DNA from: a virus
Taxonomy: Duplodnaviria; Caudoviricetes
DNA length: 24,743 nt
Strand: one strand, 5' to 3'
IMG/VR virus record: IMGVR_UViG_3300025653_000247
Location: 1-24,743 of that record
The position numbers and the translations under genes are program-made. A model generated the notes under the pieces. That model was not told the origin of the DNA. It searched no databases and saw only the letters and a list, made by a program, of their open reading frames with translations. Each line of letters starts with the position of its first letter. The first letter of the stretch is position 1. Below, piece by piece: positions 3,929 through 16,445 of this stretch.

Positions 3929-4579
3929 TTATACTGTTAAATCTCCAAAAACAACCCACTCATCTGTATCCTTTTTATAAATTGTTGCTGCAGAATATTG
4001 AGAGGTAAGTTTTAATTGTTCATTTTTAGATCTTAATACTACACCCGCACTTTCTCCAGCAATTTCTGTTTGTCCAGAACCATATTGAACAATATCAATT
4101 GTTGTTCCTATAGGGAATGCTTTTGTAGAATTTAACGGAACTGTTAAAATATTTGCGCTTGCATAATCCATTTCAATTATTTCTCCAGCGTCTGCAAGCT
4201 CTAATTCATAGGCAGATGCTGATACTGAATTAATGGTGACCCTTTCAATTGCATTTTGAACATAACCTGTTGTTGCAATTTTATTTGAATCATCATCGTA
4301 GTCTGCTGTAGGTGCTGTTGGAGTTCCAGTAAGTGATGGAGAATCAACTACGGCATCAATAGCACGCTGATCAGTAAAATAAAGGTTACTAGAGCCTTCT
4401 GTCAAGTCATCGGTATTAGTAAGAGAGATGTATGCCAAAGAGTTCCAGTTTGTAGAGCCATCACCTACTTTAATTTTTGATAGATCTGTAACTAGTGCAA
4501 GTTCACCAGAGGAAAGAACTGGGTTGGCAGAAGACCATTCAGACGCAGTTCCTCTTCTAATTTGAATTTTTGTCGCCAT
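3929..4579 (-). CDS. Tail-fibre protein: Mtd-N-like N-terminus plus C-terminal adaptor domain
   Basis: KIQIRRGTASEW...NPVL..GE......KIKVGDG..W..L.Y is the major-tropism-determinant N-terminal motif. Also TDDLTEGSSNLYFT, SPSLTGTPTAPT, and a C-terminal TVP.N...AFPIGT.I...Q.G.GQ...WVVFGDL domain. Confidence 0.85.
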   Translation of the reverse strand: MATKIQIRRGTASEWSSANPVLSSGELALVTDLSKIKVGDGSTNWNSLAYISLTNTDDLTEGSSNLYFTDQRAIDAVVDSPSLTGTPTAPTADYDDDSNKIATTGYVQNAIERVTINSVSASAYELELADAGEIIEMDYASANILTVPLNSTKAFPIGTTIDIVQYGSGQTEIAGESAGVVLRSKNEQLKLTSQYSAATIYKKDTDEWVVFGDLTV

Positions 4580-4621: not shown

Positions 4622-7429
4622 TTATACAGATCCATTATCAAGTGATCCGACAAATACTGATGTTGACGGGCTTCCACCTTCATAAACTTGATCAAATGAG
4701 ACTGTACTGGCTGAACCACCATCAAATGATCCATCTGTGACATATGCAAATTCTTTCCATATAGAATCAAAATAAATTGCTGTTCTGCCATTAGTTGTAT
4801 TATAGAAAAGATCTCCATTTGTTATGCTGGATGTTGGATATGCAGAGCCAGAAGTTAAAGATGCCCCGCCTCCACCAGCACCACTTGCCTCTAATAATAT
4901 TTCATTGTTTGCATCATCATATGTTGCTACAATGTTTGTATGATTAGAATGAGTAAATAGTGGTGCAATTGCATCTTGTATTTCTTCATCTGTTAAAGAT
5001 GTGACAGAACCAGAGGAAGATCCAACAATATCTAATGTGTTTGTAGAATCATTATATGTAACAGAGATATTTGTATGATTACCATTTACAATCATTTCTG
5101 CTGCAGCATCTTGTGCTCGTTCATTTGTGAAATATAAGTTTGTTGAACCCTCTGCTACATCGTCAGTCTCTAGGGCATCTGCATGTGCTACAGCGGCAGC
5201 AGAGGCAGAAGCAATAACTCCTGCTGTAGCATCAAGTGCACGCTGATCAGTAAAGTAAAGGTTGGTGATGCCCTCTGCTACATCGTCAGTCTCTAGGGCA
5301 TCTGCATGTGCTACAGCGGCAGCAGAGGCAGAAGCGATGACTCCTGCTGTAGCATCAAGTGCACGCTGATCAGTAAAGTAAAGGTTGGTGATGCCCTCTG
5401 CTACATCGTCAGTCTCTAGGGCATCTGCATGTGCTACAGCGGCAGCAGAGGCAGAAGCAATAACTCCTGCTGTAGCATTAAGTGCACGTTGATCAGTAAA
5501 GTAAAGGTTGGTGATGCCCTCTGCTAAATCATCTGTTTTCTTAGCTGAGAACGTGGTATCAAAATCTACTAAGTCGTAGTATGTAGATCCGTCATTGGTA
5601 AATTGCCATACATCAGATGTTTCATTCCACTTGATATATACATTTGATGCGCTACCTCTTTGTACCTCAATACCAGCATCTAGAAGTGGTGCAGAAGCAC
5701 TAGAATTAAGGGTAACAATATTATCTTCAATCAAAAGTTCTGTAGTATTTACATAAGTAACAGAACCACTTACTGTTAGATTTCCTACTACAGTTAAATC
5801 ATTTGAAATTGTTACGTCATCAGGGAGTCCAACGGTATAAATATTGCTAGCAGAAGTTACTTCTACTTCATTTGTTGTACCTTGAACATCTGCAACAGCA
5901 CCGACAACGTTAAAGCTTAGAGAATTAGCATTGTCATCATAGTCAATAGTTAGATTGGTCTGTGTTCCATTAGAAATCATGGTAGCGATAGCGTCCTGTG
6001 CTCGCTCATCAAAACTTTCATTCATCCACAATGAGGATGCAGAATTGTAAATTGCTATGTCACCATTAGACAAACTTGTTAGCTTTACATCTGCTTCTTC
6101 ACCAAATTTATGAGAGTTTATCATTCTGGCATAAATTCGACCACTATTTTGATGTTCTCTAAGAACAATGGCAACGGGTGTGCGAATATCTGGTGCTTCT
6201 CCTGCACTTGCAGACAATGTTCCTGCAGAAGCAGAGTTAGGATAAAGAGTTGTTCCAACAGGCCAGCCTTGGGTATTTACATTAGTAATTGTTCCATTAA
6301 TAACAACAAGTCCTGTTTCTGAACCGTTTTCAATATTTTGTGCAGCAAAACCAATCATATATTCTGGATCTACAGATCCATCTGTTACTGCCTTAGCAAT
6401 AGTAATTCTTTCCCCTTGAGCACCTGTTGCCATAACAAAAGAACCCTTGGGAATGTCTACACCACTATTATTTTTTGTTGGCGGCATAAATAATTTCATG
6501 CCTATAGAATGAAGAACGTCGTCACTCATTCCAAGATCTAGGGTGTTTTCCTCTGAATTCCAATATAATGTTCCAGGTGATACAGCAGAGGGGCTAGCAG
6601 ATACATCAAAGTTAATACCACTAATATCAAAGGTGCTATCTGTATCTCTAGAAACTAGAGCAGAGGCGGTATTTAGTGGAGTAGCATTAGTAGAAATATC
6701 AATGGTATTAGATCCAGAACCAGATACTAATATACCGTTGCTTTCTGAAATAGTTAGAGTATCGTTATAAACGGTTGCTACTGGATCAGTCCCTGAAGGC
6801 AAATCAATAGTAACAAAAGCTTCTGTTACTGCTTCTACAGCAGTTTCAAAGTCTGTAATATTTGAGGCAACGTGATTATGTGAGTTATCTGCAATAGAAG
6901 TAGAAATATTTATACTTGCAAGATTTGTTACTGTGGCACTTCCTGAAACATCACCAGATAGTACAACATCAAAATTATTAATATCAAAGTCTAAAGTATT
7001 ATCAACATCGTCATATGTAACAGAAATTCCATTTTCAATATTAGAAGTTACCATATTCCCAACAGTATCTGCTACTGCTTCAGCAAAATCTGTAATAGTA
7101 GACGACGTATGATTATGAGAGTCATCCTGAATAACTACTGTAACGCTAGCACTTGAAAGGTTTTGTATAGTTGTGCTACCAGAGGCATCACCAACAAGAG
7201 TTATGTTAAAATCTTGTACATCAAAGTTTAATATATTGCTAGTGTCATCATATGTTACTGATATGCCATTTTCTGTATTCTCATTGACCATATCACCGAC
7301 AGTATCGGCAATAATTTCTCCCAAGTTATTGTCAATATCCTCTGCTAAAGACTGAATATCTCCAGCGAAGTCTACTGGATCTGTATCCTGTGGATAAGGG
7401 AATCCATAATTATTTGTGGTTAATGCCAT
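4622..7429 (-). CDS. Long tail-fibre/structural protein (935 aa) with internal repeats
   Basis: Acidic and S/T/A/N-rich; repeated (E)RAQDA/ADTVG..M....NGISVTYDD, SHNH and DDxAEGxTNLYFT motifs; GNLTVSGSVTYVNTTELLIEDNIVTLN fibre motif. Confidence 0.85.
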   Translation of the reverse strand: MALTTNNYGFPYPQDTDPVDFAGDIQSLAEDIDNNLGEIIADTVGDMVNENTENGISVTYDDTSNILNFDVQDFNITLVGDASGSTTIQNLSSASVTVVIQDDSHNHTSSTITDFAEAVADTVGNMVTSNIENGISVTYDDVDNTLDFDINNFDVVLSGDVSGSATVTNLASINISTSIADNSHNHVASNITDFETAVEAVTEAFVTIDLPSGTDPVATVYNDTLTISESNGILVSGSGSNTIDISTNATPLNTASALVSRDTDSTFDISGINFDVSASPSAVSPGTLYWNSEENTLDLGMSDDVLHSIGMKLFMPPTKNNSGVDIPKGSFVMATGAQGERITIAKAVTDGSVDPEYMIGFAAQNIENGSETGLVVINGTITNVNTQGWPVGTTLYPNSASAGTLSASAGEAPDIRTPVAIVLREHQNSGRIYARMINSHKFGEEADVKLTSLSNGDIAIYNSASSLWMNESFDERAQDAIATMISNGTQTNLTIDYDDNANSLSFNVVGAVADVQGTTNEVEVTSASNIYTVGLPDDVTISNDLTVVGNLTVSGSVTYVNTTELLIEDNIVTLNSSASAPLLDAGIEVQRGSASNVYIKWNETSDVWQFTNDGSTYYDLVDFDTTFSAKKTDDLAEGITNLYFTDQRALNATAGVIASASAAAVAHADALETDDVAEGITNLYFTDQRALDATAGVIASASAAAVAHADALETDDVAEGITNLYFTDQRALDATAGVIASASAAAVAHADALETDDVAEGSTNLYFTNERAQDAAAEMIVNGNHTNISVTYNDSTNTLDIVGSSSGSVTSLTDEEIQDAIAPLFTHSNHTNIVATYDDANNEILLEASGAGGGGASLTSGSAYPTSSITNGDLFYNTTNGRTAIYFDSIWKEFAYVTDGSFDGGSASTVSFDQVYEGGSPSTSVFVGSLDNGSV
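5148..5526. repeat. 123-nt (41-aa) tandem repeat, three copies plus a partial copy
   Basis: ccctctgcta at 5148, 5271, 5394 and 5517; unit DDVAEGITNLYFTDQRALDATAGVIASASAAAVAHADALET. Confidence 0.95.
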
Positions 7430-7446: not shown

Positions 7447-7455
7447 ATTATATCA
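7447..7455 (-). promoter_or_regulatory. Extended -10 promoter TGATATAAT
   Basis: Intergenic, 17 nt upstream of the 7429 ATG. Confidence 0.75.
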
Positions 7456-7504: not shown

Positions 7505-7717
7505 CTACTCTGCGTTCTTTCCCCAACGATGATCGCTAGGGTCAAGGGCAGTAAGAACTAGTGGAATAACAGAGGCTAGGCCAGCTGCCAACCAGGATCT
7601 TATATCTGTCATATCAACAGCAAATACATCTGCTCCGTCAGCAAGAAACATGCCGAGAACTACAGAAATAAAAACCTTGACATAAGACTTTATTAAGTTT
7701 ACATACTTAGTATCCAA
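7505..7717 (-). CDS. Putative holin / two-TM membrane protein
   Basis: TTG start with GGAGG RBS; two hydrophobic segments; ALDPSDHRWG C-terminus resembles small actinophage holins. Confidence 0.6.
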   Translation of the reverse strand: MDTKYVNLIKSYVKVFISVVLGMFLADGADVFAVDMTDIRSWLAAGLASVIPLVLTALDPSDHRWGKNAE

Positions 7718-7748
7718 TTTGCACCTCCAAACTAGGTAATATTGTACA

Positions 7749-8414
7749 CTACTTTCTACTATTTATGTGGTTCACTTCTAAATAATTTATGTTCACATGG
7801 CTTGGCAACTCAGATATCCAATATATTATTTCAGCCATATCTTTACCCGTTATTGCAGACTCCCTTTTTTCTCCTTCTACCGTGTCTATGGTTCCTGGAC
7901 ATAATTCAACTATCTTTATTCCATATTGTGGATATTCAAGCCTCATCGTATCTACTAGGCCACCTATACCTCTTTTTGCATTTGTATAATTGCCACCTCC
8001 TGGATAGGCAAATTTTCCACCGAGGGACGATACAAAAATTATTGTTGCATTATCAGACTTTTCCATATTGTTTGTAAATAGTTTAGAAAGATACATCGGT
8101 CCACTTACATTTAAACTATATGCATAATTAAAGTTTTCTGGCCTTTCATTTATTATTTGTGTTGGGCTTGCTCCCCCACCAGCATTATTAACAAGGAGGT
8201 CTAACTTTATATCTTTATATTTTTCAAAAAATTTTTCTATTTCTTGAAAATTGGTTATGTCCATTTTATATGTCTCTATATTTTCAGACTGTAGAGGAAT
8301 CATTTTATCTATATTTCTAGAGACAGCTATTACCCTGTATCCATTTTCAGATAGAAATTTGCAGGTTTGATAGCCAACCCCTTTGCTTGCCCCTGTTACA
8401 ATAGCAGTTTTCAT
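7749..8414 (-). CDS. Short-chain dehydrogenase/reductase (classical SDR, YdfG-like)
   Basis: TGASKGVG, LVNNAG, catalytic Ser and YTNAK; C-terminal LPSHVNIN. Confidence 0.93.
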   Translation of the reverse strand: MKTAIVTGASKGVGYQTCKFLSENGYRVIAVSRNIDKMIPLQSENIETYKMDITNFQEIEKFFEKYKDIKLDLLVNNAGGGASPTQIINERPENFNYAYSLNVSGPMYLSKLFTNNMEKSDNATIIFVSSLGGKFAYPGGGNYTNAKRGIGGLVDTMRLEYPQYGIKIVELCPGTIDTVEGEKRESAITGKDMAEIIYWISELPSHVNINYLEVNHINSRK

Positions 8415-9097
8415 TAGCTACGATATTCTTTAACATGATCGGGGTTATATGGATCATAACCCTCAACAAATATAAATGAGGTTGACATATATTTTTCACC
8501 AGAGATTATTGGGTGCGATTGATGAAAGTACGGATAGGTTGATGGAAATATTATTGCAGATCCAGGTTCTGGCTTTACCCAAAAATCTATAGCAGGGTCT
8601 TGTATATTTGTTGTGGGCCTTCTCTCATCTTCATTAATTGCGAAAGATATTTGACCACCCCTATAATTATCATTGAAGTACATTACGATAGAATACATCA
8701 GGCTTCTATCTCCATCTAAACCATCATAATGTGGTCCAAGATTTCCACCCCTTGTATATTTGCACATGTCAAGGAATGGAGATATGTTTGGCTCAATGTC
8801 TAGTTCCCTATCTTTTACAAAAGAGTAGCATATTCTTTCTACGCCTTGCCTCATTGTCTCTATTACCTCAGAAACTAGCCGATTGTCTACAGAGTCCTTA
8901 TTACGATAGTAGAGATCTTTTTTTTCACCGAAGCAATCTTCATTATTATTGCTGGCAAGCCATGGGTACCACTTTGTTATCGCTGAGTATGTTTGCTCAT
9001 CATCATCTAATGAGTTTAACGAATCTATTATCCATTGAGGGTTTTCAAATACATTTGTATAATAATAAACATTTTCATGAAGCCTTGTTAGTTCCAT
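8414..9097 (-). CDS. 2OG-Fe(II) oxygenase, prolyl 4-hydroxylase-like
   Basis: HYD...YFNDNYRGGQISF...KPEPGSAIIFPS...FHQSHPIISGEKY (HxD...H...K). Confidence 0.9.
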   Translation of the reverse strand: MELTRLHENVYYYTNVFENPQWIIDSLNSLDDDEQTYSAITKWYPWLASNNNEDCFGEKKDLYYRNKDSVDNRLVSEVIETMRQGVERICYSFVKDRELDIEPNISPFLDMCKYTRGGNLGPHYDGLDGDRSLMYSIVMYFNDNYRGGQISFAINEDERRPTTNIQDPAIDFWVKPEPGSAIIFPSTYPYFHQSHPIISGEKYMSTSFIFVEGYDPYNPDHVKEYRS

Positions 9098-9834
9098 TAC
9101 GATACTTCACCCATCTTATATTTTCTACCTTGCTGATCTATTTTATATCCTTTTTTCAAAAGACTCTGCCACTCTTCTTTTTCTACCCTTTGCTGCTCTC
9201 TGGTCTTTTCCATTTCCTCTTTCCAACTCTCTTTTAATTCTTCTGGATACGCTGATTCATCTCTATCATCCCAAAAAGATCCGATTGTATATCTTACGCC
9301 AGACTTTAGTAATGTTACTTCATGCATATTTTCAAAGCTTCCAGAAAATGAAGCAAGTAGTCCAGTTTTAGGGGGTATTTCTATATTTTGCTTTACAAAT
9401 CTTAAAATGCCGCCATCAAAATCATCATTTAAATATAAAAAGGAGGCATATCTGCTTCTTTCGAATGCTCCAAAATTACCCATTTCGTCAGTATTATCTG
9501 AATGTGGCCTAGCATAAGCTCCTGGCTCCCATTTTTGAGTATGGAATCCTATTTTAAATATGGTTTCTACTTCTAGATCATGTACCTCTGCAACAGTTTT
9601 TTTCATTTTGTCTTCTAAAATTTCAAAATAATTAGAAGGCAAATCAAGTTTTTCTAGCTCCTTGTCTTCTTTTGGCAAAGAAGAAGAGTATGATTCATAA
9701 AAAGATATTGGCATCCACTCCATCTTTTCGGATTCCGCTTGATTGTCTAGAAACTTTATGACAGAATCACACTCTCTCTTGGAGATAAAATTATCATATG
9801 TGATAATGTCTTTTGTATATCTATGCATCTCCAA
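9097..9834 (-). CDS. 2OG-Fe(II) oxygenase, prolyl 3-hydroxylase-like motif set (start may be ATG 9828)
   Basis: HSDN...YASFLYLNDDFDGG...SFSGSFENMHEV....SGVRY (HxD...H...R); charged helical C-terminal tail. Confidence 0.88.
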   Translation of the reverse strand: MEMHRYTKDIITYDNFISKRECDSVIKFLDNQAESEKMEWMPISFYESYSSSLPKEDKELEKLDLPSNYFEILEDKMKKTVAEVHDLEVETIFKIGFHTQKWEPGAYARPHSDNTDEMGNFGAFERSRYASFLYLNDDFDGGILRFVKQNIEIPPKTGLLASFSGSFENMHEVTLLKSGVRYTIGSFWDDRDESAYPEELKESWKEEMEKTREQQRVEKEEWQSLLKKGYKIDQQGRKYKMGEVS

Positions 9835-10483
9835 GCTCCTTTATTGTCCAAAAAAACGGACAGGTAAATCTAACTCCACTCTTTATTTCTGTAACTCCAT
9901 GTATATAATTCATATCTCCAGGGAAGAAATAAGCAGCACCACGCTTCGGTTTAAACTGAATACCTTGTTTAGGAAAATAAAGCTCGCCGCCCTCATAGTC
10001 ATCATTTAAATAAAATAGGCTGGCTAGATCATAATATGGAAAATCATTTGGCTTCCCCGCGTTTTCTCCTTCGTGCAACTCTTTATCTGCATGTGGGTGT
10101 TGATATTGACCTGGCAACCATTTAACTATGGTTGGTCCAGTTGCTTGTATTTTTACATTAAAATGTTCTTCAACTGGAACCTTTAATCTATCCATCATTT
10201 TTGTAATCATCAGAGGTATTTGTGGATTTACAGATCTTAAAGTTTCAAAAGTAGCAACCCTGTCTTTCCAATATTCTGACTCATATATCACAACGCCGTC
10301 CTCATCATAATGTGTTTCTGTTTGATCCCAGGTTGTGAGATTTTTAGCAAAGTTTGATAACGTGTCTAATTCTTTTTCTGTCATAAAGTTTTCTAGCTCA
10401 ACAATATTGCTTGCGTCCATACCAAAATACCCAGAGGGTGTTATAGATACTGGTTTTTGTAAATTTTGAGGATTGGTAATCAT
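9821..10483 (-). CDS. 2OG-Fe(II) oxygenase, prolyl hydroxylase-like
   Basis: HADKE...LASLFYLNDDYEGGELYF...IHGVTEIKSGVRF. Start placed at ATG 10483, 6 nt after TACAAT (leaderless). Confidence 0.9.
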   Translation of the reverse strand: MITNPQNLQKPVSITPSGYFGMDASNIVELENFMTEKELDTLSNFAKNLTTWDQTETHYDEDGVVIYESEYWKDRVATFETLRSVNPQIPLMITKMMDRLKVPVEEHFNVKIQATGPTIVKWLPGQYQHPHADKELHEGENAGKPNDFPYYDLASLFYLNDDYEGGELYFPKQGIQFKPKRGAAYFFPGDMNYIHGVTEIKSGVRFTCPFFWTIKELGDA

Positions 10484-10497
10484 GACAAAATTGTACC

Positions 10498-11265
10498 TTA
10501 TTTGTAAGATCTTCTCTTCCAAATTTTATTCTTATACACCCCACCATTTTTTACTCTAAATCTAAGGGTGTTAATCATATTTTTTGTGTACATTCTTTCT
10601 GGGTTTTCTATTTTTATGTCTGATGACCAGTTTTCTCTTTTGAATGGAAAAAGCTGAGAATACGGTGTTCCAGCAGGCAAAACTCCAGTCCACCCTTTAA
10701 ATAGAAAGAACGGAATGGTTCCAGCAATAAGCACCTTATCACTATCAACCACACCACTTGTAGTAATAAATGGAAGATCAAACCTGTTCATAGGGTGTGT
10801 GTACAAAACACTATACCCTTCTGGTACAGTCACGGCCCAATTCATCCACCAAGCAAAATGGTTGTCATCGTACCCCATGGGGGTTACAAACTGGGGCATT
10901 GGAGATCTTTCATCAATAAAGTCTTTGTTTTGTTTATCTAAAACTTTGGCTCTAATCCTATTATTGTCGTAATAAAATTCTATGTCACAAGGCGTTCTTA
11001 AAACGTAGCCTGAAGACATAACATCTAACAATGCAGGACACGACTTCCATGTAGGTATTTTCCCACCATCTTGTGGATCAATATATGGCTTATTTGTTTG
11101 TGGATCAATCGCATATATGTCTGCATCTTTATACCACTTAGGAATCGTTTTTACGGAAGAAACTGGACATGACGGATGATTTTCTGTTAGATGATGCCTA
11201 TTAGATGTAAAGATTATGCTTTTATCATTCACTTTTTGTTGTAAGCTTGATTGTTCTTGATTCAT
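10498..11265 (-). CDS. DUF6065-like / dUTPase-like beta-clip protein
   Basis: PKWYK...TWKSCPALLDVMSSGY...PEGYSVLYTHPMNR.DLPF...SGVVDSD...PAGTPYSQLFPFKRE. Confidence 0.65.
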   Translation of the reverse strand: MNQEQSSLQQKVNDKSIIFTSNRHHLTENHPSCPVSSVKTIPKWYKDADIYAIDPQTNKPYIDPQDGGKIPTWKSCPALLDVMSSGYVLRTPCDIEFYYDNNRIRAKVLDKQNKDFIDERSPMPQFVTPMGYDDNHFAWWMNWAVTVPEGYSVLYTHPMNRFDLPFITTSGVVDSDKVLIAGTIPFFLFKGWTGVLPAGTPYSQLFPFKRENWSSDIKIENPERMYTKNMINTLRFRVKNGGVYKNKIWKRRSYK

Positions 11266-11920
11266 GACTTCCCACAGACTCCCCTCTACTATTCTCTGCT
11301 TTTCTATAAAGGTTTGTAAATTTTCCTAGTTTGCTAACTTTTTTATAAAATTCAAAGTCTTCCTTAACTTGCTCTTTATTAATTGGATAAGGCTTATTTT
11401 GTATTTTTACCTCAAACTCTTGCAGAGCACCTAATGATATTGGAACAATGGTGGCAACAGGCGTACCTGCTGGTATTATTATTTCTACATTGGGCTTTGT
11501 TATCCTCCATGCGATAGGAATAGATGACTTAAAAAATGAGGTACTTATTAGGTTAGTAAAGCATTGAGCATTTTCATTAAATTCATTTGGAACGGGCATT
11601 ACTAAAGTAGTAACACTTTCTTCTGTTACAACAGTAAGATATGTATTAAAGCTTATAGTAGCATTGCCTCTAGATGTAAAACAATACTTATTTCCGCTTA
11701 TTACCTTAACGTGATCTGCGGTTGTATCACAAATTCCGTCCCAAATAAAGGATATGTCCTCTGGAAAAGATATTCCCCATCCCAATGAGTTTGCCAGGGA
11801 TAGGGGCATACATTGATATGCATGTTTGTTTGGCGTTTCATCCATCCATAATCTTTTTACTTGTAGCTGTTCTATATTGGCAGATTTATCTATTTCTTTA
11901 TGAACATGTATTGATCTCAT
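11225..11920 (-). CDS. DUF6065 family protein
   Basis: RLWMDETPNKHAYQCMPLSLANSLGW...WRITKPN....PAGTPVATIVP matches the recalled DUF6065 pattern; distant paralog of the next gene. Confidence 0.75.
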   Translation of the reverse strand: MRSIHVHKEIDKSANIEQLQVKRLWMDETPNKHAYQCMPLSLANSLGWGISFPEDISFIWDGICDTTADHVKVISGNKYCFTSRGNATISFNTYLTVVTEESVTTLVMPVPNEFNENAQCFTNLISTSFFKSSIPIAWRITKPNVEIIIPAGTPVATIVPISLGALQEFEVKIQNKPYPINKEQVKEDFEFYKKVSKLGKFTNLYRKAENSRGESVGSHESRTIKLTTKSE

Positions 11921-12606
11921 GACCCTGTTTCCTGATAAAACTCTGGGCTATGGAACTTGTCTGAATAATCAAGCATTGTTACTAGTGAATATTTAGTTCC
12001 ACTAATTACTGGCATAGCTCTATGAGGATACATAAAGTTTGATGGGAAAACAAATAGATCCCCCGCTTCTGGCTTTACCTGTAGGTTTTGTAGTCTAAAA
12101 GATATTTCTCCACCTTCATAATTATCATTTAAATAAAGAACAAGAGATACTGTGCAGTTATATGAATATCCATGGTCGTGATGATATTCAAAGTGCTCTC
12201 CAGGGCCGTACTTAACAAGATTCATTGCCTCCCAATATCTAAGCTCCCCGATGTTGTAATGTTTGGCATAGTCTTTTACAGGCTGCAACTGTCTATAGTG
12301 TAGTTCTGAATATATTTGGTTTATTGTCTGAACACCTGGAATATTTTCTGGTAATTGACCAGGCTTATATTTAAAGTCATGGCAATCTCTGTATTCAGGC
12401 ATAAGCTCCTGATATCCCACATATGCTGGCATCCAACTTAGTGATGGGTTCCATGACCTATCTAAAATTTTTGAAATCTTTTCTACTATTTCATTTCCGT
12501 TACTTACAACGTTTTTATATACCCATATTCCATCTTTTAGTTCTTCAGAATCTGTCCAAGTTTGTTCTTCAATTTCGTACCATGGACCTTGTGTTATTTT
12601 TTCCAT
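11917..12606 (-). CDS. 2OG-Fe(II) oxygenase, prolyl 4-hydroxylase-like
   Basis: HHD...VLYLNDNYEGGEISF...KPEAGDLFVFPSNFMYPHRAMPVISGTKY; ATG 12606 behind GGAG. Confidence 0.92.
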   Translation of the reverse strand: MEKITQGPWYEIEEQTWTDSEELKDGIWVYKNVVSNGNEIVEKISKILDRSWNPSLSWMPAYVGYQELMPEYRDCHDFKYKPGQLPENIPGVQTINQIYSELHYRQLQPVKDYAKHYNIGELRYWEAMNLVKYGPGEHFEYHHDHGYSYNCTVSLVLYLNDNYEGGEISFRLQNLQVKPEAGDLFVFPSNFMYPHRAMPVISGTKYSLVTMLDYSDKFHSPEFYQETGS

Positions 12607-12627
12607 TAATGCTCCAATCAAAGGAAA

Positions 12628-12636
12628 ATTATATCA
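12628..12636 (-). promoter_or_regulatory. Extended -10 promoter TGATATAAT, internal to the enzyme cluster
   Basis: Overlaps the stop codon of the upstream gene; identical to the structural-gene promoters. Confidence 0.7.
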
Positions 12637-13236
12637 CAGCAGAATTGGCATCCATTTTTGAGGATATTGATCAGGTATTCTACTCAGGGTAGATAGATTA
12701 AAGGATATTGCTTTTTCTATATTCCTAAGTTGTATGTCTACTCCCGACTCAAACACTACTATAGTTCCAATAACTACCTCTGTTTCAGTTGAGTTTATTT
12801 TTATGCTAGCATCTTCATTTGCCTGTAGTATCCAGTATCCAGAAAATGAAGGGGCACCACCTCCACCTGTGTCATATAGTACATCATCTCTAAAAGATTC
12901 TTCATACTCAGATGTTAAATAGTACTTATTTTTTACTGTATTAATTTCTCTCTTACCACTAATTATTGATAACAGAGACACTACCTCTTTAAAACAAAGA
13001 TACACAGATTCGTTATAAAGCTGAAAATAATTAAAAGATAGGTCGTTAACACATGATCTATCATAAACAAAGCTTGCTCTATCTCCACCATTAAAAAGAT
13101 AAACTTCCTCTTTGCTATTTCTTATAAAATCAATATCTTCTATTACATTTTTTGGAATAATTTCAGAGGTTAAAACAAGATTGCTGCGCTTTATTTTTTC
13201 AAACAAAACACTCTCTTTATGAGCATTAGTTTTCAT
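12634..13236 (-). CDS. Hypothetical protein, possibly a degenerate double-stranded beta-helix (oxygenase-like) fold
   Basis: LYDTGG...SFSGYWIL...GTIVVFESG...ISFNL resembles a DSBH strand order, but the metal-binding His residues are absent. Confidence 0.55.
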   Translation of the reverse strand: MKTNAHKESVLFEKIKRSNLVLTSEIIPKNVIEDIDFIRNSKEEVYLFNGGDRASFVYDRSCVNDLSFNYFQLYNESVYLCFKEVVSLLSIISGKREINTVKNKYYLTSEYEESFRDDVLYDTGGGGAPSFSGYWILQANEDASIKINSTETEVVIGTIVVFESGVDIQLRNIEKAISFNLSTLSRIPDQYPQKWMPILL

Positions 13237-13774
13237 TTTTTATCCTTTTAGAAATTCTGTTATTTTGCCATGAATAAGGAAATGCTGGATCTCTAGGCAT
13301 CTCCTCATCTGGATAATCCATCCTACCATTATTTTTTGTTTTTAATTCTTGACCAATACCCTTTGTAGCTTTTTGATAAAAAGATTCCATTTTAGTATTT
13401 CTGTCGGGGGTAACATCTACATGAATACCAAATGTTCCCCACATAATAACTCTTGTCATATATCCATACCATGTCCACCACTTTTTACCACGATGTATTG
13501 GATTGATACTAGCCCTCTCACCATAATATATTCCATCTTCATTAGGACGGGAATATACGGAGTATACGTCTGGATACTTATGATACATATACGGAGAAGA
13601 AATTACTGTCCCTGCAGGAAAATCTTGATTGTGATACATAGAAATAAAGAAAGAATGAAGGCCACCACTTTTAAATTTGTGAGTAAATATCCAACTGTCG
13701 CCTAACTCTATTGGAAAACATTCAAAGTCTGCAGTAGCGACACCATTATCATCCTTTGCTACAAAGCTTGTCAT
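13226..13774 (-). CDS. Hypothetical protein, possibly GNAT-like acyltransferase
   Basis: ATGA overlap with the Hint gene; ERASINPIHRGKK resembles GNAT motif A, followed later by N..MESFYQK. Confidence 0.5.
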   Translation of the reverse strand: MTSFVAKDDNGVATADFECFPIELGDSWIFTHKFKSGGLHSFFISMYHNQDFPAGTVISSPYMYHKYPDVYSVYSRPNEDGIYYGERASINPIHRGKKWWTWYGYMTRVIMWGTFGIHVDVTPDRNTKMESFYQKATKGIGQELKTKNNGRMDYPDEEMPRDPAFPYSWQNNRISKRIKNEN

Positions 13775-14697
13775 TCGTAACCGATGTTTTCTATCTCGCG
13801 CATGGAATGACTGTCATGTACCAGCATGTGTTCTGTAAAGAACACATCATATGGCTCTACGTTAATACAAACTACCTCATGTGGTGATTCTATAAACTCA
13901 AGAAGCGTTATCTCTTCAAATGAGGAAGTTTGATATGAATAGATAAGGTCTGTTTCTACAACATTAAGAACTTCAATAAATTTTGCCTCACCGTCTCTCA
14001 TTACAAGGATAAAGTGGGTGTCAGAAAATATGTCATCGTTGATTACAATTGCCCACTCTGTAGTTCTGGTTACTATTCCAACAACTGTTGATTCCTTATA
14101 AGTTATTTGTGGATCTTCACTCGTCCAATCAAGTGCCTGTTGATTTGATTCTTCCGTCCACATATACGGGAATCCTTCAATTTCTGCAGAAATAAGGGTG
14201 TCTCCATACTCTAAATCGCCTGCAGCAACAAGACCGTCTGGTGTCCTAATTAGTGTGTCAACTCCAACGGATTTGTAGAGGTGATGGGGGGGAGGCTTGA
14301 AATATGGTGGGAAGAACGGTGGGAAGAACGGTGGGAAGAAAGGGAACGATGGTGGGAAAAACGGTGGGAAGAAGGGGCCAAAAGATGGTGGGAAGAAAGG
14401 GAACGATGGTGGGAAAAACGGTGGGAAGAAGGGTGGGAAGAAAGGAGCAACATATTGATAGTAATTATAGTCAACAGCACCGCCTGGGGTAGTTTGTTCA
14501 TTTGCTAATGGGTTTTGACTAATAATTTGTTGATCCAAGCTAGTATTTGTTGTCGTTGTGGATGTTTCTGTGCCAACAACAAGACCAGCTTCATTTAATT
14601 TTGTTGCTGCATTTGTTCTAGTTTGTCCAATAATATTTGGAACAAATTTTCTAATTCCTCTACCGATGGGACCGAATATGTCAGAAAGAAATGCCAT
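13771..14697 (-). CDS. PASTA-like domain + Pro/Phe repeat + C-terminal Hint (intein-like) domain protein
   Basis: aa 18-80 VPNIIGQT...A...L..AGL.......QQIISQNP..N...PGGAVDY (PASTA); aa 85-137 (PFFP)n; aa 143-295 SVGVDTLIRTPDG...SDTHFILV...VVCINVEPYDVFFTEHMLVHD/S (Hint blocks A, B, F, G). Confidence 0.85.
   Translation of the reverse strand: MAFLSDIFGPIGRGIRKFVPNIIGQTRTNAATKLNEAGLVVGTETSTTTTNTSLDQQIISQNPLANEQTTPGGAVDYNYYQYVAPFFPPFFPPFFPPSFPFFPPSFGPFFPPFFPPSFPFFPPFFPPFFPPYFKPPPHHLYKSVGVDTLIRTPDGLVAAGDLEYGDTLISAEIEGFPYMWTEESNQQALDWTSEDPQITYKESTVVGIVTRTTEWAIVINDDIFSDTHFILVMRDGEAKFIEVLNVVETDLIYSYQTSSFEEITLLEFIESPHEVVCINVEPYDVFFTEHMLVHDSHSMREIENIGYE
14287..14445 (-). repeat. 12-nt-unit coding repeat for (Pro-Phe-Phe-Pro)n, with a 57-nt internal duplication
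   Basis: 53 aa containing 25 Pro and 22 Phe; PFFPPFFPPSFPFFPP occurs twice, 19 aa apart. Confidence 0.95.
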
Positions 14698-14705
14698 GTT
14701 ATTCC

Positions 14706-15458
14706 CTAAAAATTAAGCGAGGCTTGGGCCAAGACTGTCCAAGAGCTTGACTGACGGATAAGAGTAAAGCTAAAAATATCAATTTTATTAGCTGTTGGTG
14801 TAGGGGTGATGCCTGCAACCCATCGTATAGTTTGTGCTGAACCATTTATATTAAAAGCAGATGGGATTCCTCCTGTACTCCCCTGAGTTACAATGATAGT
14901 TATATTAATGACTTTATCATTATCTAGTGGAACATTGATTGCATCAATGCTAAAGTTCGCACTTGGAGAAGAAAGAGATACATTAGCTCCTGTTGCGTAA
15001 TCAATTGTTAAAGTTCCAGCAGATAATAGTTCTGAAGATAGTGATTCCCTGACTGATTGAACATCAAAGTCTCCTGTGACATTAATACTTTCTGTTACAT
15101 TAAAAGTGCCCGTGACATTAAAATCCCCAGTAACTGTTGAAGTTCCAGTAATTGTTGGAGAAGAAAGTGTTGCAGAAGAAAGTGTTTTATTTGTCAATGT
15201 TTGAGTGGATGTTGTTCCTACAAGATTACCTGATTCTACTCCGTGCACTCCAGTTGTCGATGATGCGTGAGTAGAAAGGTCTTGTTCTATCCCAGCAAGG
15301 TGGCCTTCCATACCTCCTGGATCACCATTGCCATCATAGTCTGCACCATAATGATACTCTGTAAAGGCTTGAATAATGTTGGCAACATCTGTTTGCTCAG
15401 GAACACCTACGTCATAGTTTGTAGTAAAGTTATTGGTGTCTGATATATTTTGTGCCAT
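14706..15458 (-). CDS. Tail-fibre protein with C-terminal adaptor domain
   Basis: H.SSTTGVHGV....LVGTTSTQTLTNKTL motif; C-terminal WVAGITPTPTANKIDIFSFTL...W domain; ATG 15458 behind GGAG. Confidence 0.8.
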   Translation of the reverse strand: MAQNISDTNNFTTNYDVGVPEQTDVANIIQAFTEYHYGADYDGNGDPGGMEGHLAGIEQDLSTHASSTTGVHGVESGNLVGTTSTQTLTNKTLSSATLSSPTITGTSTVTGDFNVTGTFNVTESINVTGDFDVQSVRESLSSELLSAGTLTIDYATGANVSLSSPSANFSIDAINVPLDNDKVINITIIVTQGSTGGIPSAFNINGSAQTIRWVAGITPTPTANKIDIFSFTLIRQSSSWTVLAQASLNF

Positions 15459-15474: not shown

Positions 15475-15483
15475 ATTATATCA
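15475..15483 (-). promoter_or_regulatory. Extended -10 promoter TGATATAAT
   Basis: Intergenic, upstream of GGAG and ATG 15458. Confidence 0.75.
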
Positions 15484-16089
15484 TCAAGCGAGCAATGATA
15501 TTGTTATGTGATGCTTTGCTGATGAATCTGTTAGGTCTAACCATTGTGCAGATGCTGAATTATAGTATAAAGAATAAAAATCAACATTTATAAAGTTTGT
15601 TATATTATTTACTGATTTTGTTTTAAGACTGGTAACTACAGGAGCGTCTTCAAATTCAGTAGAGATTTGAATGCTTAGATTATTTTCAGAAATAGAGGTT
15701 GCGCTATATTCAGAAAAAGCCTCCGCTATACTAACCCCATATGTATAAATACCCCCGCTTGCACTAATATTCCCTACACTAGCACTTAATGATGCAACGT
15801 CACTATAAATAGATGGCTTTAGTGAGCCAATTTTTTCCCATTGAAATCCACCAGCACCATCAGATAAGTATTGATATAGATATCCTTCTGTCTGTCCCTG
15901 GCTTTCTCTAATAAATAAGTCATTTAAAAGAATACTAGCGTCTGGTGGAGCTACGTTTGGATCATCAAATCCACTAAATATCTGACTACCCCTTTGCCCT
16001 GTAGCACCAACATCTAATTGTATATCTATAGTAGCAGGAGGGCCAATGACAGATATTTCTGGAGTATTTAGCAACACCTCTATGCTCAT
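15484..16089 (-). CDS. Minor tail/baseplate-appendage protein
   Basis: N-terminal beta-strands then GATGQRGSQIFSG..DP; ATGA overlap with the upstream gene. Confidence 0.7.
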   Translation of the reverse strand: MSIEVLLNTPEISVIGPPATIDIQLDVGATGQRGSQIFSGFDDPNVAPPDASILLNDLFIRESQGQTEGYLYQYLSDGAGGFQWEKIGSLKPSIYSDVASLSASVGNISASGGIYTYGVSIAEAFSEYSATSISENNLSIQISTEFEDAPVVTSLKTKSVNNITNFINVDFYSLYYNSASAQWLDLTDSSAKHHITISLLA

Positions 16090-16445
16090 GTTATTCTACC
16101 GCTAATATCATTAGTCACTGTTATTGTTCCTGCAAGTAAGGTATAAACATTGTCATCATTCTTAATCTCTACGTCATAAACATACGATGTGCCCTGTGCT
16201 AAATTCTCACCGTCCTCTGGAGCAATGACACAACTGATATATGATTCTGCAGAGTTAATTGTTATATCTCCGTTAAAAACAAAAGTATCTGTTCCCCCAG
16301 ATCGTGATGCTATGGTAAATGTTGCACTTGCAGACAAATAATCTGATAAATCAAATGCTGTTCCATCAGCATTTTTGGGCTGAACAACAAACTCAAAAGA
16401 GTCTCCACGATAATATGAGAAGTTATAAGTTGCAGGAAAAGCCAT
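16086..16445 (-). CDS. BppU-N-like Ig-fold baseplate/fibre attachment protein
   Basis: YRGDSFEF...KNADGTAFDLS.Y...YVYDVEI......TLLAGTITV; paralog of 17628-17969. Confidence 0.75.
   Translation of the reverse strand: MAFPATYNFSYYRGDSFEFVVQPKNADGTAFDLSDYLSASATFTIASRSGGTDTFVFNGDITINSAESYISCVIAPEDGENLAQGTSYVYDVEIKNDDNVYTLLAGTITVTNDISGRIT

Follow-up and report, generated by a model that had tools for sequence, protein, structure and literature searches.

A Pro/Phe-tract protein and co-inherited prolyl-hydroxylase-like genes in the adhesin slot of an uncultured freshwater phage

Decoration of phage structural proteins by enzymes of the same phage has been described for mycobacteriophages, where glycosyltransferases act on the capsid and tail tube (Freeman et al. 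2023, as cited in the available part of PMC12619734). At the locus described here, the enzymes are oxygenases and the candidate target is a fibre-tip stalk. The array of Synechococcus phage Syn9 shares with it several unrelated 2OG-Fe(II) dioxygenases and a protein with a conserved Cys and a dUTPase fold, the fold of ours being predicted. The Syn9 array also encodes a JmjC protein and tryptophan halogenases, both absent here, and in the sections available the authors name no substrate and suggest small-molecule synthesis (Iyer et al. 2010, PMC2938197), whereas at our locus the enzymes are co-inherited with a repeat protein. Chlorovirus PBCV-1 likewise encodes a P4H-type enzyme, active on Pro-containing peptides, but according to the accessible text this is a lone algal-virus enzyme lacking both a P3H-like partner and a linked substrate gene; no hydroxyproline was detected in PBCV-1 virions despite the active viral P4H, which counts against virion hydroxylation here (PMC7019647). 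The collagen P4H and P3H1 pathway also combines Lys-type and Arg-type prolyl-hydroxylase-like enzymes with a Pro-Pro-rich repeat, P3H acting on Pro-4Hyp-Gly (PMC11012932, available in part). The tract of our locus is built on Phe-Pro-Pro-Phe with about 1% Gly, so that no collagen triple helix is expected, and the enzymes are only distantly alike. Finally, the bacterial intein-like Hint of PDB 2lwy shares a C-terminal Hint position, an N-terminal nucleophile and a block-B His. That type has Cys1 and a His-Asn end; ours has Ser1 and a His-Asp end, and it caps a phage tail-region protein at some loci only.

No description of a tract and hydroxylase system was found in the literature searched, in which subscription papers were thinly covered. 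The same search returned nothing on DUF6065, on BIL/Hint domains in phage tail fibres, or on a phage prolyl hydroxylase with hydroxyproline in virion or tail proteins. Phage oxygenases are treated only generically in the available parts of PMC12801897, PMC10611076 and bioRxiv 10.64898/2026.02.18.706586.

The tract protein in its adhesin slot

The window analysed (24,743 nucleotides) derives from an uncultured freshwater phage. The record behind it is 23% complete, and the rest of the genome is thus unseen. The tract gene occupies a swappable adhesin slot behind a fibre gene; nine genes follow it on the minus strand, encoding a GNAT-like protein, a degenerate oxygenase-like protein, four 2OG-FeII_Oxy_3 proteins, a DUF6065 protein with a distant paralogue, and a short-chain dehydrogenase/reductase (SDR). 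The initial annotation had described a PASTA domain, a 53-aa tract with 25 Pro and 22 Phe and a Hint domain followed by nine genes, with overlapping stop and start codons (ATGA at 13771 and 11917, TAATG at 9097 and 8414); all of this was borne out.

14706..15458, minus strand: fibre-like protein, 250 aa, upstream partner of the tract gene; PHROG virion structural/unknown matches
13771..14697, minus strand: Pro/Phe-tract protein, 308 aa, PASTA, tract and Hint
14473..14643, minus strand: PASTA domain, aa 19-75; Pfam 31.1 bits, above cut-off
14287..14445, minus strand: tract, 53 aa, aa 85-137, proposed substrate
13813..14271, minus strand: Hint (BIL-like), aa 143-295, with Ser143, His228 and terminal His294-Asp295-Ser296

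Within 53 residues the tract holds 47 Pro or Phe, a number that never exceeded 24 in 2000 shuffles of the 308-aa protein. An artefact or wrong frame was ruled out: synonymous codons are mixed, there is no DNA microsatellite, and the pattern recurs at the protein level in 80 distinct tracts. Open reading frames on the plus strand across the tract (14281-14508 and 14297-14458) were rejected as shadows. Over the tracts, composition is 47% Phe, 44% Pro and about 1% Gly, FPPF being the commonest Pro-Pro unit; length ranges from 22 to 144 aa and the units are irregular. In many relatives fibronectin-III (FN3) domains occupy the PASTA position, and these N-terminal domains are structural and interchangeable.

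Taken singly, the Hint region of 13771..14697 falls below the Pfam cut-off. A profile built from 23 family Hints matched the BIL domain 2lwy (E 2e-11). Ser or Cys stands at position 1 in 23/23 rows, which were hand-picked, and the block-B His is present in 10/10 Ser rows, so that profile match, nucleophile and His are all present as in BIL/Hint domains. The C-terminal His-Asn for splicing is absent; its place is taken by His-Asp-Ser, common to 16/26 aligned relatives. A Hint-sized tail was found in 18/59 tract loci and its presence required 14 changes on the cassette tree. The Hint is thus optional, and self-cleavage, which had been put forward as a defining property, does not appear essential.

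These observations bear on the idea of a RiPP-like precursor, from which the tract would be excised, possibly with cyclisation by way of the Hint ester, to give a free modified peptide. The layout of a precursor followed by enzymes, the conserved Hint nucleophile, the repeated cores and the co-inheritance of tailoring enzymes all suit such a precursor. Against it, 41/59 tract genes have no Hint, the Hint would cut only behind the tract, tract length and units vary as described, and the N-terminal domains are structural. RiPP precursors are short, with a conserved leader and core; this protein has 308 aa and an interchangeable PASTA or FN3 N-terminal part. We therefore regard a RiPP-like precursor as very improbable, and the released antamanide-like peptide proposed earlier was not borne out, the nine genes including neither peptidase nor exporter.

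Display on the virion, the other outcome initially proposed, fits the position of the tract gene in the adhesin slot, and from this position we infer a virion location for its product. Relatives sharing the C-terminal domain of 14706..15458 continue with other adhesin-like genes. In the same slot an oxygenase accompanies 8/9 other Pro-rich adhesins, versus 5/49 tract-less and 0/4 Thr-rich ones (near-duplicates included); the Thr-rich adhesins carry a PF11397 glycosyltransferase instead.

The block had also been said to share the promoter motif of the fibre modules. The motif TGATATAAT occurs in five copies versus 0.73 expected, all on the minus strand and just ahead of genes. Its presence ahead of the fibre and tract genes upholds the claim, to which an extra copy inside the block must be added.

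15475..15483, minus strand: TGATATAAT preceding the fibre and Pro/Phe genes
12628..12636, minus strand: internal TGATATAAT ahead of oxyA, over the stop of 12634-13236
7447..7455, minus strand: TGATATAAT opening the next fibre module, just past the block

Among relatives, TGnTATAAT lies between the tract gene and oxyB in 34/59. RNA contigs from four freshwater metatranscriptomes touch 23-28 of 30 bins, from which neither level nor strand can be read. They stop at 4572-4574 (four studies) and 16427-16429 (three studies), just past two TGATATAAT motifs, where a DNA contig continues; this is a weak hint that the motifs are real promoters. A single RNA contig ends at 15463, a weak observation, and one spans the internal motif at 12628.

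The enzymes behind the tract gene

13226..13774, minus strand: G2, GNAT-like (weak), accessory
12634..13236, minus strand: G3, degenerate oxygenase-like fold without iron ligands, travels with G2
11917..12606, minus strand: oxyA, 2OG-Fe(II) oxygenase, P4H-like, H142-D144-H195-K205, core
11225..11920, minus strand: D5, DUF6065, invariant Cys37, core
10498..11232, minus strand: D6, invariant Cys65, predicted dUTPase-like fold; belongs to the tract-linked clade within a phage family that is widespread
9821..10483, minus strand: oxyB, P3H1-like, H131-D133-H195-R205, core
9097..9825, minus strand: oxyC, P3H1-like, H108-D110-H168-R178
8414..9097, minus strand: oxyD, Lys-type, H123-D125-H192-K202
7749..8414, minus strand: SDR, general small-molecule type, accessory

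In all four oxygenase clades the iron and 2OG ligands are at least 95% conserved. The residue following HxD..H, which we take to bind 2OG, is Lys in oxyA and oxyD and Arg in oxyB and oxyC. The best solved match of oxyA was the B. anthracis P4H (E 2e-7), PDB 5c5t, the PBCV-1 enzyme, being also among the matches; a PDB search with the single oxyA sequence was swamped by designed repeat proteins. For oxyB and oxyC the best solved match was human P3H1 (E 3e-7 and 1e-10), aligned over about 70-80 residues only. Judged from sequence, two of the oxygenases thus resemble prolyl 4-hydroxylases and two prolyl 3-hydroxylase, a distant likeness with modest PDB matches. In the alignment oxyA has Cys/Thr where BaP4H has its substrate-contact Arg, on the strand that follows HxD. 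The pairing of P4H-like with P3H-like enzymes fits the Phe-Pro-Pro-Phe units of the tract.

The enzymes may instead act on the tract protein mainly through other chemistry, such as Phe/Tyr hydroxylation or Cys-dependent D5/D6 reactions. Phe is as prominent as Pro in the tracts, a single residue type would hardly seem to call for four or more distinct oxygenase clades, and two aromatic-Pro tracts of other sequence occur with intermediate D5 or D6 scores (L148, 164 bits; L175, 231 bits). But the top solved matches of the oxygenases are all prolyl or lysyl hydroxylases or PKHD types, and oxygenases also accompany non-aromatic Pro tracts; we consider such chemistry improbable.

Two genes had been called DUF6065-like. 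The name holds for D5, whereas D6 falls outside Pfam DUF6065 and is a distant paralogue (phrog_7084; hhalign 88%), the two sharing only Cys-x-Pro. The D6 model (pLDDT 93) gave listed fold matches that were all dUTPase or dCTP deaminase, the best with E 4e-3 (TM 0.25-0.31 by query). D6 has an invariant Asp163 and Gln193, presumably dUTPase motifs 3 and 4, and D5 has neither. PDB sequence searches with D5, D6 and G2 returned no credible match. No D5 relatives were found in the bacterial and archaeal genomes searched. Members of the D6 family are also present where tract and oxygenases are absent (up to eight matches per genome), some of them amid primase-, helicase- or polymerase-like genes, and in 49 halovirus records. 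Together with the predicted fold, the two invariant residues and a weak Tet_JBP match of oxyB, these paralogues might suggest that D6 is a nucleotide enzyme and that the oxygenases modify DNA bases. We find this highly improbable: the Tet_JBP score of 20.2 bits is below the cut-off of 34.9, D5 lacks the Asp, the block contains no methylase or base-modifying partner, and the tie to a peptide tract is strict.

G2 is found only directly behind Ser1-Hint tract genes. Its family matches Acetyltransf_1 weakly (2/14 members, E 0.03), three relatives have an RKxGxG motif-like stretch, and its model is poor (pLDDT 52). Atlas look-alikes of G3 belong to 2OG-FeII_Oxy clusters at 0.94-0.96, although HxD..H is absent from G3.

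Co-inheritance of tract and enzymes

The enzyme set was expected to be gained and lost with the tract. This holds for the core: a tract gene was present at 41/41 oxyB loci whose upstream DNA spans 5.5 kb or more (59/80 over all loci). An unrelated gene was used as independent anchor, by which 43 phage records were picked. The tract pattern occurs in 7/43, and the same seven hold the oxyB, D5 and D6 clades, with scores of at least 296, 338 and 358 bits, respectively, versus at most 82, 164 and 231 in the others. Four complete genomes of the anchor set lack the tract and all three clades; 14/36 negative records stop less than 17 kb beyond the anchor. The seven positive records need four changes, in four separate places on the anchor tree, a single clade being rejected (p-AU 0.0002).

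Slot-1 tract genes have no adjoining enzyme in 10/11 cases. Where a tract gene lacks its own cassette, a cassette lies about 8-10 kb off behind a second tract gene in 6/6 testable records (out of ten). On phage-like contigs with oxyA and oxyB at an identity of only about 40%, tract, oxyA, oxyB and DUF6065 are kept together in four loci. The tract pattern was also found at 22 loci in bacterial or archaeal genomes; four, which combine oxygenases with DUF6065, resemble phage contigs within MAGs, two come from two of the same MAGs, and 16 are without cassette. No cultured phage with the cassette was found: D5 had no match, D6 matched only haloviruses, and oxyB matches were at 26-36% among the 30 listed of 58 records.

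The cassette core is two oxygenases (oxyA and oxyB) and the DUF6065 protein D5, whereas G2, G3 and the SDR are accessory. A dedicated nine-gene operon was an overstatement, since the SDR occurs in 23/80 loci (many loci end early), G2 and G3 in 2/80, the D6 family is widespread without the tract, and the block has a promoter motif of its own inside it. Of the proposed arrangement of a substrate with its tailoring enzymes, co-inheritance of the core stands and the dedication of all nine genes is not supported.

Such co-inheritance could arise if the enzymes were hitch-hiking cargo, with small molecules or host proteins as their substrates, that lies beside the tract gene only through block-wise swapping of the slot. 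The block does move as one piece, and joint gain and loss are partly linkage: in another sample 7643-14357 recurs at about 99% identity with the flanks absent, and in locus L004 the cassette is 94-99% identical while the flanks are at 53-84%. Elsewhere the slot carries many unrelated genes, among them those for sulfotransferases, epimerases and carbamoyltransferases. The SDR belongs to a general small-molecule type, the D6 family is scattered, and secondary-metabolite synthesis was proposed for similar cyanophage arrays (Iyer et al. 2010, PMC2938197, in the available text). Yet cassette order and accessory content vary and both ends of the tract protein are swapped while the tract persists at every testable oxyB locus, linkage extends down to the 40% identity level, and enzyme type follows stalk composition. 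Agreement among the cassette genes in a Mantel-type comparison is moderate (Spearman 0.26-0.60). Hitch-hiking thus seems unlikely to us. The joint gain and loss of tract and hydroxylase-like genes suggests instead that the enzymes likely hydroxylate the Pro/Phe stalk.

A proposed stalk-hydroxylation kit and its meaning

We favour the reading that the block is probably a phage kit for post-translational hydroxylation of the Pro/Phe stalk of its own fibre-tip protein. The tract protein would dock on the fibre through its N-terminal part. The Lys-type enzymes oxyA and oxyD may form 4-hydroxyproline on Pro-Pro pairs, as collagen P4H does, and the Arg-type oxyB and oxyC 3-hydroxyproline, as collagen P3H does; collagen-type recognition is an analogy, because the tract contains almost no Gly. 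Hydroxylation would stiffen, solubilise or protect a very hydrophobic polyproline stalk. The Hint would excise itself at Ser143, so that the protein would end in the tract, as it does from the outset in Hint-less relatives. D5 and D6 would be Cys-dependent helpers, and G2, G3 and the SDR optional add-ons.

More tentatively, freshwater actinophages may possess a general modular system for tailoring low-complexity fibre-tip stalks, with enzyme sets matched to stalk chemistry: a glycosyltransferase for Thr stalks, a hydroxylase with or without a glycosyltransferase for Pro stalks, and 3- and 4-hydroxylases with DUF6065-type Cys enzymes for Pro/Phe stalks. Here it would possibly yield an aromatic polyproline fibre, free of Gly and with dense 3,4-hydroxylation, at which a Hint unmasks or ligates the C-terminus; DUF6065/D6 would then be a new peptide-modifying class on a dUTPase fold.

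In aquatic viromes, genes of the prolyl-4-hydroxylase-like kind rank with the commonest 'auxiliary metabolic genes'; they occur at 62% of Baltic water stations, and the purpose they serve has been called cryptic (PMC9301287, available in part). The locus offers a concrete candidate substrate and a minimal set (tract, oxyA, oxyB and DUF6065) that lends itself to tests in E. coli. If the proposal is right, small stand-alone P3H-like enzymes would be gained together with a function for DUF6065, many phage P4H-like genes would serve virion assembly rather than host metabolism, and lake actinophages may rely on modified fibres to recognise their hosts.

Source and layout of the block

The virus, whose linear record is about 23% complete, was detected in freshwater metagenomes. 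WhiB, a mark of actinobacterial phages according to the literature passages available to us, was present in 4/5 records sharing the structural gene 16086-16445 (hereafter the anchor) and in 5/5 cassette-bearing records. Because it was not found in the gene content of the window itself, we infer an actinobacterial host only from these relatives. Tail-fibre-type genes occupy the minus strand from 3.9 to 18.3 kb. The initial annotation had described there one gene encoding PASTA, a Pro/Phe tract and Hint, with nine genes after it: GNAT-like G2, degenerate oxygenase-like G3, the oxygenase oxyA, two DUF6065-like genes (D5, which is DUF6065, and D6), oxyB, oxyC, oxyD and an SDR. This description, including the gene junctions, was borne out in full. 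The sequence TGATATAAT occurs in five copies in the window versus 0.73 expected, and one copy lies within the block, at 12628, so that the block probably comprises two units, fibre-tract-G2-G3 and then oxyA to SDR. The tract gene and other genes of the region are as follows.

13771-14697 (-): tract gene, 308 aa
7505-7717 (-): hydrophobic ORF of 70 aa, holin-like by appearance, without match in a family search
4622-7429 (-): fibre of 935 aa with three near-identical repeats of ~43 aa, in a region that varies among relatives
3929-4579: fibre of 216 aa
1-3918 (-): open-ended protein (>1306 aa) containing several long, nearly identical repeats, lying behind the 216-aa fibre as a second fibre-plus-adhesin pair

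The tract protein and its Hint domain

In the product of ORF 13771-14697, PASTA (aa 19-75) precedes a tract of 53 aa, 25 of them Pro and 22 Phe (shuffles of the protein reached a Pro+Phe maximum of 24), and the Hint domain starts at Ser143. Among the 120 relatives listed, of 255 found, the N-terminal part was PASTA or fibronectin-III. The domain after the tract, scored in 59 loci, was Hint-sized in 18, a Cys-rich tip in 9 and a short tail in 32; on a FastTree built from 66 cassettes, Hint presence changed 14 times. The protein of distant phage-like contigs terminates three residues past the tract. Tracts ranged from 22 to 144 aa, with 47% Phe, 44% Pro and FPPF as the dominant unit. Since both flanking parts vary, the tract is the constant part of the family.

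Position 1 of Hint was Ser or Cys in 23/23 hand-picked rows; among these, the block-B His was kept in 10/10 Ser1 rows and replaced by Gln in 9/13 Cys1 rows. The domain therefore looks able to perform the first step of self-processing. Its C-terminal end in the window reads His-Asp-Ser instead of His-Asn, which, from general intein chemistry, suggests N-terminal cleavage. Such cleavage would leave the tract on PASTA, ending a few residues later, like the Hint-less forms.

Some short tails directly after the tract (loci L082:1-192, L097:629-1429, L100:5306-5899 and L103:4133-4906) match S[DS]xR[LFY]K, the motif at which intramolecular chaperones of tail fibres (peptidase S74) cleave themselves; they are possibly a second, remnant means of capping the tract. 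Tract variants with Pro/Tyr/Asn units (proteins P0013-P0024 and locus L175) are followed by a Ser1 Hint of the same type or have a related D6 next to them.

Distribution of tract and enzyme genes

On the enzyme side, we analyzed the best 80 of 600 oxyB loci, in which cut contigs make all gene counts lower bounds. The tract gene lay upstream of oxyB in 59/80, the other 21 loci being cut before that point, and in 41/41 of those with at least 5.5 kb upstream. The same 80 loci carried oxyA in at least 71, D5 in at least 73, D6 in at least 75, SDR in at least 23 and G2/G3 in at least 2, both of the latter from the window's own strain.

On the anchor side, the best 80 of 589 loci were used, and whole-record searches covered 43 anchor records, each at least 20 kb. 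The tract pattern was found in 7/43, two of them near-copies, and the oxyB, D5 and D6 clades in exactly the same seven (these counts are not independent); a wide gap in oxyB, D5 and D6 scores separated these from all other anchor records. Tract and clades were absent from all four complete genomes of the set. When only the 29 records were kept that were complete or continued beyond the anchor for at least 17 kb, the table read 7/0/0/22. The seven records fell at four places in the anchor tree, a single clade being rejected. Across the 43 records these enzyme clades track the tract.

Behind the anchor sits a swappable fibre-adhesin-cassette slot, with a recognisable adhesin in 73/79 loci. Thr-rich slot adhesins were accompanied by a PF11397 glycosyltransferase and no oxygenase (4/4), Pro-rich non-Pro/Phe adhesins by an oxygenase in 8/9, and tract-less adhesins by an oxygenase in 5/49. 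Pro/Phe slot adhesins had no enzyme alongside in 10/11; in 6/6 testable cases the cassette was found 8-10 kb off, following another tract gene. Apart from adjacency, the strongest argument is that the enzymes present match the type of stalk. Thr-rich stalks were paired with PF11397, a radical SAM protein and an epimerase (loci L121, L123, L134, L135), and Pro-rich stalks with an oxygenase and PF11397 (L144, L148, L196); these sets are candidates for O- and hydroxyproline-glycosylation of adhesins.

Enzymes and probable function of the module

HxD..H is kept in all four oxygenases, and the 2OG site has Lys in oxyA and oxyD and Arg in oxyB and oxyC (conservation at least 95%). The closest solved structures, all modest matches, were B. 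anthracis prolyl 4-hydroxylase for oxyA (2e-7), which lacks that enzyme's Arg after HxD, and human prolyl 3-hydroxylase P3H1 for oxyB and oxyC (3e-7 and 1e-10). As prolyl 3-hydroxylase works on Pro-4Hyp-Gly, according to the part of the source available (PMC11012932), hydroxylation of Pro-Pro pairs at 4, then 3, would be a coherent scheme. D5 and D6 are distant paralogues with one common Cys; the D6 model was confident, and its structural matches were solely dUTPases and dCTP deaminases, all weak. G2 is weakly GNAT-like and G3 is oxygenase-like with its iron ligands missing. Both directly follow a Ser1-Hint tract gene in 8/9 loci, the ninth being cut; further Ser1-Hint tract genes occur without them. 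Glutathione-peroxidase-like and TauD-like genes lie within distant tract cassettes (L209, L215, L221, L223).

The likeliest function, which we consider moderately probable, is a fibre-tip stalk self-decorated by prolyl hydroxylases. The RiPP cluster initially proposed shares the pairing of a repeat substrate with tailoring enzymes, but fails on precursor form and release machinery. Our literature search found no description of the module in the texts available, the Syn9 array being closest: the accessible part of its report (PMC2938197) presents a Cys-bearing dUTPase-fold protein, a kind that D6 resembles, and no substrate, whereas the window module has a repeat substrate candidate. Chlorovirus PBCV-1 has an active prolyl 4-hydroxylase, but hydroxyproline was not found in virions, according to the accessible part of PMC7019647.

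Other findings weigh against self-decoration of the stalk. The block was transferred as one piece, run X13 having 7643-14357 at ~99% identity with the flanks missing. Genes of the D6 family are widespread where there is neither tract nor oxygenase, haloviruses included, with as many as 8 matches in one genome, and in a different phage group oxygenase and D6-like genes stand behind a tract-less adhesin. Locus L115:6295-9584 has an oxygenase and two D6-like genes behind a Cys-rich tract-less adhesin, and a further gene that looks like a flavin halogenase. In the sets G029 (L199-L204) and G034 (L205-L206), some D6-family genes lie amid primase-, helicase-, SSB- and polymerase-like genes, as labelled from sequence.

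The module is real and widespread, and the cassette was not found in any cultured phage among the database matches listed. Halovirus D6-family genes neighbour adhesin and nucleotide genes; in the cultured haloviruses HF2 and HRTV-11 the D6 homologue (L110:5857-6741 and L111:5854-6741) faces a tail-fibre/adhesin block, and these viruses are a tractable place for testing the D6 family.
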